A stretch of DNA of 64,000 nt from NCBI RefSeq assembly GCF_000027125.1, contig NC_017626.1. The stretch is one strand, 5' to 3'. Position 1 is the first letter of the stretch, and every line of letters starts with the position of its first letter. Below, in pieces: positions 57,901 to 60,900 of this stretch. The stretch is from Escherichia coli 042. Its GTDB lineage: Bacteria > Pseudomonadota > Gammaproteobacteria > Enterobacterales > Enterobacteriaceae. The position numbers are program-made.

Positions 57901-60900
57901 ACTGGCTGATGCTCGTCAAAAAAGGGAAGAGGCCAGAAAACTTGTTGCTGCAGGCATCGATCCCCGTGAACACAAACGTGCAGTGAAAGAAGAGCAGACG
58001 AAAGAGGCTATTACCTTTGAGTCAGTTGCCAGAGAGTGGCACGCAGTAAATAAAAAATGGACAGAAGAACATAGCCGACGGGTGCTGAAGAGCCTGGAAG
58101 ATAATTTGTTCCCAGCAATTGGGAAGCGGAGTATTGATAGTTTTAGTACGCGCGATCTCCTTGTCCCTATCAAAGTAGTTGAGGCTACAGGGCGTCTTGA
58201 AGTGGCTTCGCGTCTTCAGCAGCGTACCAATGCGATTATGCGTTGTGCAGTGCAAAGCGGTTTGATCGATTACAATCCTGCTCAGGAGATGGCTGGGGCA
58301 GTTGCTTCAAGTAATCGTGTCCATCGACCAGCACTTGAACTGAAACGCTTACCTGAACTACTCCAGCGAATTGATAGCTACTCCGGACGACCTTTAACCC
58401 GTCTGGCTGTTGAGCTCACGTTATTAATCTTTATTCGTTCCAGTGAGTTGCGCTTTGCCCGTTGGCCAGAGATCGATTTTGAAAGGGCAATGTGGACAAT
58501 CCCGGCAGAACGAGAAGCTATTGAAGGAGTGAAGCATTCGGAACGTGGCTCGAAAATGCGTACTCCTCATTTAGTGCCGCTTTCTCGTCAGGCACTGGCA
58601 ATCCTTAAACAGGTTCATAAGCTTAGTGGCGAGCGCGATTTTGTTTTCGTTGGAGATCACAATCCTTGTAAACCGATGAGTGAAAATACAGTGAACAAGG
58701 CGCTGCGCGTGATGGGATATGACACTAAGATTGAGGTTTGCGGTCATGGCTTCAGGACCATGGCATGTAGCTCGTTGATTGAATCAGGGCTGTGGTCTAG
58801 GAACGCTGTTGAAAGGCAGATGAGCCATATGGAGCGTAACTCTGTACGTGCTGCTTACATTCATAAGGCTCAACACTTGGATGAGCGTAAAATGATGCTG
58901 CAGTGGTGGGCAGATTTTCTTGATGTAAATCGGGTGAAGGGCGTCAGCCCATTTGATTTTGCCAAGGAGAAATGAGCTATGGTAATGAGGTTATAGATAA
59001 GAGAGAATACTACTTTATCGCGGGTTTTTAGTGGCTGGCAGGTCTAGATGAGTAGAAAATTCAAGTAATCTACACTCACTCGACTTAAAGATGGGGCCTT
59101 TTAAAAGGTCCTGCTTTGATGCTTACTGGAATGATAACCGTCCTAATCGTTGGCGAGTTTGTTCCATAAGTCCTGAATCCATAGGTTTTCTCTCTCATTG
59201 ATATTAAGTAGCACCCATAAATTTTATTCAAGGATAAGAGATAATGGCAAATTTTTCGGTAGCTGCGAGAACATTAATTCATTTAGGGGCGGAACTGATT
59301 ACCTCAGATGAAGTTGCTATAAATGAACTTGTTAAGAATGCTTTTGATGCCGAATCTAAACGGGTTAGGATAAATGTATTCATACCTATTTCGCATTCGT
59401 TAATAGATGACTGCCTTGCAATACTCGACAATAGTAAAAAAGAGGAAGCTCTTCAAGATGATATTTTTCATATAAAGAAAATGTTAATTGAAAGTGTTTC
59501 TGAACCTTCTATTGCAGCCCAAGTAGAAGAGTTGTTGCTAAACTTAACTTCAGATTCTAGCAAGGATGAAGCAAAAAAAATAGTCGAGTCGATAAACTAT
59601 ATAACAATCGAAGATTCTGGTTGTGGAATGGATTTAGCGACACTTGAAACGGTATTTTTGGCAATAGGCACTCCCTCTAAAGTAAACTCTGAAAGTACAA
59701 AAGACTTAAATAGAAAAATCCTAGGCAATAAAGGTATTGGACGTTTAGCAATGATGAGACTTGGGGATATTGCCAACGTTACATCTTGGGTTGAACAAGG
59801 TAGTGCCCATGAAATTGAATTCGACTGGCGAATGTTTGACGATCCTGAAAAAATAATCACCGATATTGAATTTGAAATAAAACCGACCACTTGTCCAAGG
59901 CCAACACCTTCAGGGACTGTAATAAAGATAACAGCACTTAAAAGCTCTTGGACTGAAGAAAAAGTTCGCGAAAAGCTCGTGGGTGATTTTTTTAGAAGGT
60001 TACAAAACCCATTTGTGATGTCATTGGATGAAGGTAGCTCCGATAACACAAAAAAAAATAAAAAGAATAGAACTGTAGGCTTTCCAATAGATGTTCATAT
60101 TAATGGAGGAACTCGAATACCTATCGAAGGTATGAAGAAAGTGTTAACAGATTTAGTTCAGGCTGATATGGAGCTCTGGTTTGACCCAAACGGGATTGGT
60201 GATACACCTGAAGTTATTCTCCGTACGAGTTTGACTGACTACCAACGTGGAAATGAACCTGAAAATACTAATAGAACAATAGAAGAAGTAACACATGTTT
60301 TAAATGTTAATTTTGAAGCACTTAAGAAAATTGGCCCCGTAAGAGCTACTATTAGATGGTTTAATAGAGAACGGTTACGCCAGCAAGCTACTTTGCATGG
60401 TAACTGGAAAGCAGCGAAGGCCGAATTAGATTTATGGTGTGGAGGAATAGCAATATATCGAGATGGTTTTCGCATTGGATTTTCTGGACAATCAACCGGC
60501 GAAGACTGGCTGGGACTAGATAGTTCTGCTCTTAAGAGAGGAGGTTTTGCTGTAAACCGTATTCAGACTGTCGGTGCGTTAGAGATTTCAAGAAAAGAAA
60601 ATCCCGGTTTGGTTGATAGATCTAATAGAGAAGGATTGATTGAATCACCAGAATCCAATCTTGTAAGAGATATGCTGTCGAAATTTGCTATTGATGAACT
60701 TCGTCGCTACATCGGTCATGAAGGGCAAGAAGAGAAGAAAGCACGTCTAAATGATATAGTTGAAAGCGCTCCTGCAACTATACGCGCTCGGATACTGCAA
60801 GCTGAGCAAGGACTCACATCTATAAGGTCTAAGGTTCCCGCAGATGTTCAAGAATCAGTACAATCAATCGCAAATAATTTACACTTTATAAAAAATGAAG

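Follow-up and report, generated by a model that had tools for sequence, protein, structure and literature searches.

Two-component-like gene pairs of the HEF_HK/Response_reg_2 type were linked to restriction-modification in 2021, on computational grounds (Bellieny-Rabelo et al., PMC8011034), and Acinetobacter baumannii global clone 2 carries Ssp loci without SspE that lie beside a histidine-kinase two-component system (PMC12421847). With the exception of one remark in the latter work, none of the papers searched pairs SspBCD with a histidine kinase/receiver effector. Here we have analysed a stretch of 64,000 nucleotides from the chromosome of Escherichia coli 042 (NC_017626.1; the window, in what follows), and in it a two-gene operon, geneA-geneB, together with the 268-bp spacer that separates it from the integrase gene upstream. 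The locus follows the plan of the P4-type integrase islands found at leuX, i.e., a tRNA-Leu, then a P4-type integrase and then AT-rich cargo on the same strand, although in this case no excisionase or AlpA-type gene comes after the integrase. As at the integrase-cargo junctions of other tRNA-inserted islands, the spacer is confined to this island and appears to carry no element of its own.

We favour, with moderate confidence, the reading that these 268 bp are an ordinary, non-specialised junction that houses neither a dedicated promoter or terminator nor an RNA element or small gene, and that the operon behind them is weakly transcribed by read-through. The mobile cassette (geneA-geneB with the convergent sspBCD genes) would be present here as a promoter-less copy abutting the integrase gene of the leuX-inserted island, and only the last ca. 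20-45 nt of the spacer, the ribosome-binding region, would belong to the conserved cassette, the remainder being near-neutral filler. Transcripts would start upstream of the integrase gene, at the candidate promoter TTGTGA-17-TATGCT, and continue through the spacer without termination, and poor initiation at sub-consensus sites of the AT-rich spacer itself may add to them. The coordinates of all these features are collected in Table 1.

Table 1. Features of the leuX island and of the spacer, in positions of the window
Feature	Position	Strand	Evidence or remarks
tRNA-Leu(CAA) leuX, island insertion site	57438..57522	+	ARAGORN; Rfam tRNA 59 bits
Best candidate integrase promoter TTGTGA-17-TATGCT	57643..57671	+	Rough PWM 9.71 vs lacP1 10.06; predicted
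P4-type tyrosine integrase, 417 aa	57722..58975	+	Pfam Arm-DNA-bind_3, Phage_int_M, Phage_integrase; RefSeq annotation
Spacer ("leader"), 268 bp	58976..59243	+	Gap between integrase stop codon and geneA ATG
Most conserved spacer block	58979..59008	+	24/30 identical to L002/L006, AGATAAGAGAGAAT exact
Imperfect palindrome GGGGCCTTTTAAAAGGTCCT	59094..59113	.	-9.8 kcal/mol; -13.9 with A/U flanks; near-miss terminator hairpin
Previously proposed promoter TTGATA-17-ATTTTA (or -18-TTTTAT)	59198..59226	+	PWM 7.14 / 9.16, chance level
Top promoter-like site of the region, TTGCCA-18-TAAAAT	59221..59250	-	10/12 positions; PWM 12.35
Translation initiation region TATTCAAGGA	59225..59243	+	Shine-Dalgarno AAGGA 59230-59234, 9 nt before ATG
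geneA, 794 aa	59244..61628	+	N-terminal paraMORC-type GHKL ATPase (HATPase_c_3), C-terminal histidine-kinase core
geneB, 616 aa	61625..63475	+	Receiver-fold N-terminus, helical linker, C-terminal region with MazF/CcdB-fold domain (predicted)
Perfect 15-bp hairpin in the 148-bp geneB/sspD convergent gap	63513..63551	.	-21 kcal/mol
sspD, 3' part, extends past the window end	63624..64000	-	RefSeq locus L001; PADLOC SspD 1e-140

Promoter, terminator and RNA signals in the spacer

The preliminary description of this DNA had seen in the gap 58976-59243 an AT-rich leader of 268 bp with only weak sigma70-like hexamers, namely a TTGATA (59198-59203) and, 17 bp apart, an ATTTTA (59221-59226), and all of these coordinates are exact. 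The spacer is indeed AT-rich with respect to the E. coli core (GC of 0.38 versus 0.54), but not with respect to the island cargo (0.39 in geneA and 0.36 in geneB), so that its AT-richness reflects the composition of the island and is not a property of a leader. The weakness of the hexamers stood up better. A consensus promoter scan of 57000-61000 returned three sites where shuffles would give 6.7, all three on the minus strand and none on the plus strand. For scoring we used a rough sigma70 position weight matrix (PWM), which takes the frequencies of the consensus bases from the classical compilations and divides what is left equally among the other bases; its scores are indicative only. The controls reached 10.89 (leuX promoter, TTGCAT-16-TATAAT at 57381), 10.06 (lacP1) and 14.2 (lacUV5). 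The top plus strand score in the gap was 9.16, for TTGATA-18-TTTTAT, whose -10 has no A at position 2, and this is the level of shuffled sequence: mononucleotide shuffles of the gap gave 9.33 +/- 1.53, with 49% reaching 9.16 or more, and in a repeat run the mean was 9.46 with 56% at least as good. Windows of 268 nt taken from adjacent coding DNA had best scores of 8.64 +/- 1.05. No plus strand pair in a position to drive geneA had the canonical sigma70 form, that is, hexamers matching at 4/6 or more each, A2 and T6 in the -10 and a spacing of 16-18 bp.

It had been suggested that the operon might depend on an alternative sigma factor, on a phage-induced activator or on read-through from the integrase promoter. 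The first two would be accommodated if TTGATA, with either ATTTTA or TTTTAT, were the operon promoter, weak alone and boosted by such a factor during phage infection. TTGATA is a good -35 (5/6) and heads the best plus strand pair of the gap, but we consider this explanation very improbable. The score is at chance level, neither -10 option has the consensus T-A start and, as the preliminary description had already remarked, there is no good -10 at 17-bp spacing, the pair with ATTTTA scoring just 7.14. In two related loci with diverged leaders, L002 and L006, the hexamers are not kept (TTTCAC ... CTTCTT stand there). Besides, the transcription start predicted from this promoter, ca. 59233-59236, falls at or past the conserved Shine-Dalgarno sequence, so that the mRNA would lack the conserved ribosome-binding site; the candidate is functionally incoherent and unlikely as the operon promoter. 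A by-eye look for sigma54, sigma32, sigmaE and sigma28 patterns found nothing with the correct spacing, and the same was true for LexA, CRP and IHF patterns, also by eye. Of the three suggestions, only read-through has gained indirect support; an alternative sigma factor is unsupported, and so is a phage-induced activator, though the latter may still act here.

The strongest promoter-like site of the region lies on the other strand, where the same ATTTTA reads TAAAAT and pairs at 18 bp with TTGCCA (59250..59245). It is the fifth best PWM site of the whole window, both strands considered, is directed at the integrase and away from the operon, and its -35 shares bases with the start codon of geneA. 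If this were the functional signal, it would produce an antisense or small RNA over the spacer and into the 3' end of the integrase gene, and could occlude the start of geneA. Sites scoring that high occur at only ca. 0.03 per kb per strand, and the palindrome of the spacer could terminate a minus strand transcript of ca. 105-120 nt. However, the -35 is dictated by coding sequence (ATGGCAA, at the geneA start), the -10 is not kept in L002/L006, where the score is 7.4, and the putative RNA is less structured than shuffles (z=+1.15) and has no match in Rfam. Antisense promoter-like sites are moreover frequent in AT-rich acquired DNA and in the cargo, a second example being found at 59487..59458 of the minus strand. 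We therefore regard a functional minus strand RNA as improbable and the site as probably fortuitous.

A scan of 58976-59243 for terminators returned no terminator-like site, and nowhere between the integrase gene and geneA is there a G+C-rich hairpin followed by a U run. The palindrome comes nearest; its U tract is poor whichever strand is read (tail UGCUUUGA), and it is not conserved, L002 having unrelated small hairpins there. In the spacer RNA G equals or exceeds C in all 78-nt windows, and it is thus not rut-like nor a typical Rho-loading site. A search of 57000-60000 against Rfam at E<=5 matched only the tRNA and nothing in the spacer, and folding of the leader RNA gave no excess stability over shuffles, either in the window (z=-0.50) or in the L002 homologue (z=+0.28). 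A structured cis-regulatory RNA is therefore not indicated by Rfam match or folding energy. An RNAalifold consensus of four sequences contained some two-sided changes, including a pairing of the AUG/GUG start with CCAU/CCAC, which we rejected because only two lineages are represented, too few for covariation to be informative, and the pairing is absent in L003 and L004, two Pseudomonas-type relatives described below.

Other candidates were also discarded. Four small open reading frames over the gap (48, 36, 23 and 37 aa) have no Shine-Dalgarno sequence, and their frames are broken by indels in L002. A 13-nt direct repeat is found at the spacer ends, GATAAGAGAGAAT (58996-59008) and GATAAGAGATAAT (59233-59245), the second copy spanning the geneA start, and a related inverted repeat (58992-59010 / 59185-59203) brackets the spacer. 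Neither second copy is kept in L002, and repeats of this kind should arise by chance at the 2-kb scale, so that both are probably fortuitous.

Leaders of related loci and the source of transcription

Among 5426 complete E. coli genomes the spacer is present in only 9, always with 100% identity, and a search of the E. coli genomes in distant mode retrieved these same identical copies only. No homologues were found in plasmid, phage and viral-contig collections, the viral contigs having been covered by a pattern search. A pattern search of metagenomes gave four true matches belonging to two lineages and, with the look-up of an 85%-identical protein, provided near-identical copies (L005, L007 and L009) and the diverged lineage L002/L006, which has an integrase and a homologous leader of 277-279 bp. 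The leaders of the window and of L006 are 56% identical, close to the identity at 4-fold degenerate sites (48% in geneA and 36% in the integrase gene), which argues that most of the leader is near-neutral. Across the gene family, conservation is limited to the last ca. 20-45 nt, with the Shine-Dalgarno AAGGA: the window shares exactly the same TATTCAAGGA with L002, L003, L004 and L036, while L011 and L035 depart from it by one or two bases. Besides the block next to the integrase gene, discussed below, the conserved tracts of the spacer are 59026-59045, 59106-59125 and the ribosome-binding region, 59216-59243. In L005 the identity to the window is mosaic, the middle of the integrase gene (compared over 57733-58732) being 64-88% identical and everything from ca. 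58733 on (the 3' end of int, the leader and geneA) 98-100%, which points to recombination inside int, with the leader staying with the cargo.

The most informative comparison was with the closest relatives of the cargo outside the integrase context, five Pseudomonas-type loci (L003, L004, L011, L035 and L036) in which geneA is 74-77% identical. Homology of the window to them begins only at ca. 59203-59225. The E. coli copy has the same ribosome-binding region and the same gene start as the native Pseudomonas leader, but upstream of about -45 its spacer is unrelated. The five Pseudomonas-type loci have an extra ca. 130 nt of conserved leader, with a block between about -175 and -130 relative to the start of geneA; its upper limit lies ca. 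175 nt before the start codon, and upstream of it the five are unrelated to each other. Within this block there is a position-conserved TTGAGA-17/18-CATCAT at about -166, which is absent from the E. coli copy and has a PWM score of 11.25 in three of the five loci, a value that 3-6% of shuffles reach. To judge from these sequence comparisons, the Pseudomonas cassette seems to bring a promoter of its own wherever it moves; the E. coli/L002 lineage is without this segment.

Dependence on a neighbour would not be exceptional for this module. In five loci from five other genera, a co-directional sspD precedes geneA by 37-111 bp, an arrangement which suggests that the module often relies on upstream transcription; these sspD-geneA loci probably form a five-gene operon. 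A same-strand gene upstream of geneA also recurs independently, as an integrase in the window, L002 and L006 and again in L022 (Acinetobacter), and as traI in L035 and L036. In the last two (both Pseudomonas) the context resembles an integrative and conjugative element, the cassette lying directly 3' of a TraI_2 relaxase gene and near a gene for MvaT, an H-NS-like protein.

Comparison of the window with the diverged leaders L002/L006 left a single promoter-like pair conserved in position, and not the TTGATA/ATTTTA one. It is the very weak TGGTAA-17-GAGAAT (-35 at 58980-58985, -10 at 59003-59008) of the most conserved block, right after the integrase stop codon, and it could be taken as a weak sigma70 promoter of the operon's own, which would start transcripts near 59015 and give a 5' untranslated region of ca. 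228 nt. Both hexamers and the 17-bp spacing have their counterpart, TGGAAA-17-GAGAAT, in L002/L006; 24/30 positions of the block are identical, over a background of 56%; conservation falls directly after the -10; and GAGAAT retains the two critical bases, A2 and T6. Still, we think such a promoter, with the start that it predicts, unlikely. The PWM scores of 4.9 in the window and 6.8 in L002 are far below those of leuX (10.9) and lacP1 (10.1), and also below chance-level maxima; the sequence between the hexamers is conserved too, something that a promoter does not require; and the binomial P of 0.006 for the block, uncorrected for about 9 windows, becomes ca. 0.05 once these are corrected for.

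With no recognisable plus strand promoter, no terminator and no native promoter segment in the spacer, geneA-geneB is most likely transcribed weakly, via read-through and/or poor initiation in the spacer. The absent signals, the conservation pattern and the missing segment are observations, from which we infer the read-through and the low level of expression. Read-through from the integrase promoter, one of the earlier suggestions, is plausible given that the genes have the same orientation, that no terminator-like site intervenes, that the RNA is not rut-like and that the promoter-bearing leader of Pseudomonas is absent. The only plausible upstream source is TTGTGA-17-TATGCT. The -10 of this candidate lies between the arms of a 15-nt inverted repeat (57644-57658 / 57683-57697; 93% complementarity, separation 24 nt), a possible operator or portion of attL.

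Several points weigh against the reading of the spacer as a passive junction crossed by read-through transcripts. The integrase promoter candidate is just moderate (9.71) and predicted, and the matrix that scored it is rough. A 268-nt untranslated stretch within H-NS-prone, AT-rich DNA could provoke Rho termination. Conservation in 58979-59008 exceeds that elsewhere in the spacer and this block takes in a weak hexamer pair, so the spacer may have a weak promoter of its own. The comparative power is low, with only two diverged leader lineages.

It can also be asked if the operon is transcribed at all. In an essentially silent operon, the AT-rich island would be silenced by H-NS and its promoter-less effector genes would be poorly expressed or a decaying passenger. 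This would agree with the island GC of 0.36-0.39 against 0.54 in the core, with the dense promoter-like sites on both strands of the cargo (typical of xenogeneic DNA), with the lack of the native promoter and with the limitation of the island to 9/5426 complete genomes. Yet both open reading frames are intact, identical in 9/9 genomes and nearly identical in three metagenome contigs, and the Shine-Dalgarno sequence and start codon are also intact. Modification genes such as sspBCD without a partner would be unusual. Moreover, the high-affinity H-NS motif TCGATAAATT, allowing up to two mismatches, has 82 matches window-wide against 73.6 expected, not above chance. On balance silence seems rather unlikely, and weak read-through transcription is the reading that we retain.

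Layout of the island

The E. coli chromosome preceding the island has the order lptG, yjgR, ahr and then leuX, with a terminator-like hairpin plus T run 3' of the tRNA gene (57536-57553, terminator scan). The integrase stop codon occupies 58973-58975 and the ATG at 59244 is the earliest possible start of geneA. The integrase gene, geneA and geneB are all on one strand, the last two overlapping by 4 nt. Downstream of geneB, and convergent with it, come sspD, sspC and sspB, the latter two beyond the window end in the full record. The products encoded together were recognised by PADLOC as SspD (1e-140), SspC (E=0) and SspB (7e-115). The hairpin in the convergent gap was not flagged by the terminator scan; it has a 9-nt loop and no T run on either side, and is thus not a canonical terminator. 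A search for attR, the leuX 3' end repeated directly, found none in 22 kb downstream (L001, 18723-40601), and after sspB there are an IS110 fragment and sugar phosphotransferase system and LacI genes, giving no defined right boundary of the island.

The geneA-geneB pair beside sspBCD

Behind a spacer of little importance in itself, the operon is the thing worth following. In geneA, a DHp region with invariant H585-E586 is followed by HATPase_c, and the profile matches include ZraS and HK853, among others. The N-terminus of geneB has a receiver fold in which D21, D22, D144 and K208 are invariant and S179 is found in at least 90% of the sequences; TQxCD, R468 and R485 are also invariant in this protein. 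A PDB sequence search with geneB found no relative. At the level of fold, its C-terminal region matched solved MazF/Kid/CcdB toxins with a sequence identity of 6-14%, and we assign to it, by this match, a MazF/CcdB toxin fold with putative toxin activity.

The operon had been called novel, which has to be qualified on two accounts, its distant relatives and its constant sspBCD neighbour. Scores with Pfam were below gathering for both HEF_HK (19.6 against 24.1 bits) and Response_reg_2 (22 against 27 bits), and sub-threshold in most relatives too; at E<=0.01 the two families were matched by 20/35 and 5/22 relatives, respectively. The architecture of the HEF_HK/Response_reg_2 pairs is nevertheless there (HATPase_c_3, DHp His-Glu and CA in one soluble protein, a DD/D/S-T/K receiver, and adjacent genes). 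As the Pfam matches are only sub-threshold, we consider geneA-geneB a distant relative of such pairs. As for the neighbour, geneA-geneB adjoin sspBCD in all 19 full-length relatives from species-representative genomes (L011-L029), and also sspB-sspC-sspD in most of the other related loci, L002-L004, L006, L035 and L036 belonging to that set. The two cassettes are arranged either convergently or co-directionally.

The PADLOC models for SspE, SspF, SspG and SspH did not match geneA or geneB, and the pair is a candidate for a new effector arm of Ssp phosphorothioation. In such an arm, the receiver protein would be phosphorylated by a paraMORC-GHKL/histidine-kinase sensor and would have the MazF/CcdB-fold toxin domain as its output. 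Taken whole, the picture of the spacer as a seam and of geneA-geneB as a phosphorelay-type restriction or abortive-infection arm of SspBCD, with its expression tied to integrase transcription, is one that we put forward tentatively, at a little short of even confidence. Its Ssp-partner part rests on synteny (19/19 full-length relatives) and on the fold evidence; the sub-claim that expression of the module is wired to integrase transcription in E. coli is weaker and, taken separately, doubtful.

Two consequences seem worth stating. The leader segment with the conserved promoter-like pair of the Pseudomonas relatives has been lost from this E. coli cassette, and the 268 bp should therefore not be taken as the "native promoter" when the operon is cloned; for functional work, the integrase region should be included or a heterologous promoter used. 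The pair would also give SspBCD a widespread two-component-like partner, so far uncharacterised, whose output domain has a toxin fold, and could be tested as the "missing effector" in Ssp loci without SspE, like those of A. baumannii global clone 2 (PMC12421847).

Compared with the HEF_HK/Response_reg_2 pairs, geneA is similarly a soluble histidine-kinase-like protein (HATPase_c_3, DHp H-E), overlapping an adjacent receiver-like gene and located beside DNA-modification genes. However, the partner here is SspBCD phosphorothioation and not a C5 methyltransferase, and phosphorothioation genes are not mentioned in PMC8011034. Unlike in the SspABCD phosphorothioate defence systems, there is no sspA in the island, and IscS presumably substitutes for it. 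SspFGH consists of a Walker-A protein, an unknown protein and an FtsK-like protein, from which geneA and geneB are different. The overall organisation is nonetheless the one known from SspABCD-SspE and SspABCD-SspFGH, with sspB, sspC and sspD adjacent and a separate effector cassette, in this case a candidate one, alongside.

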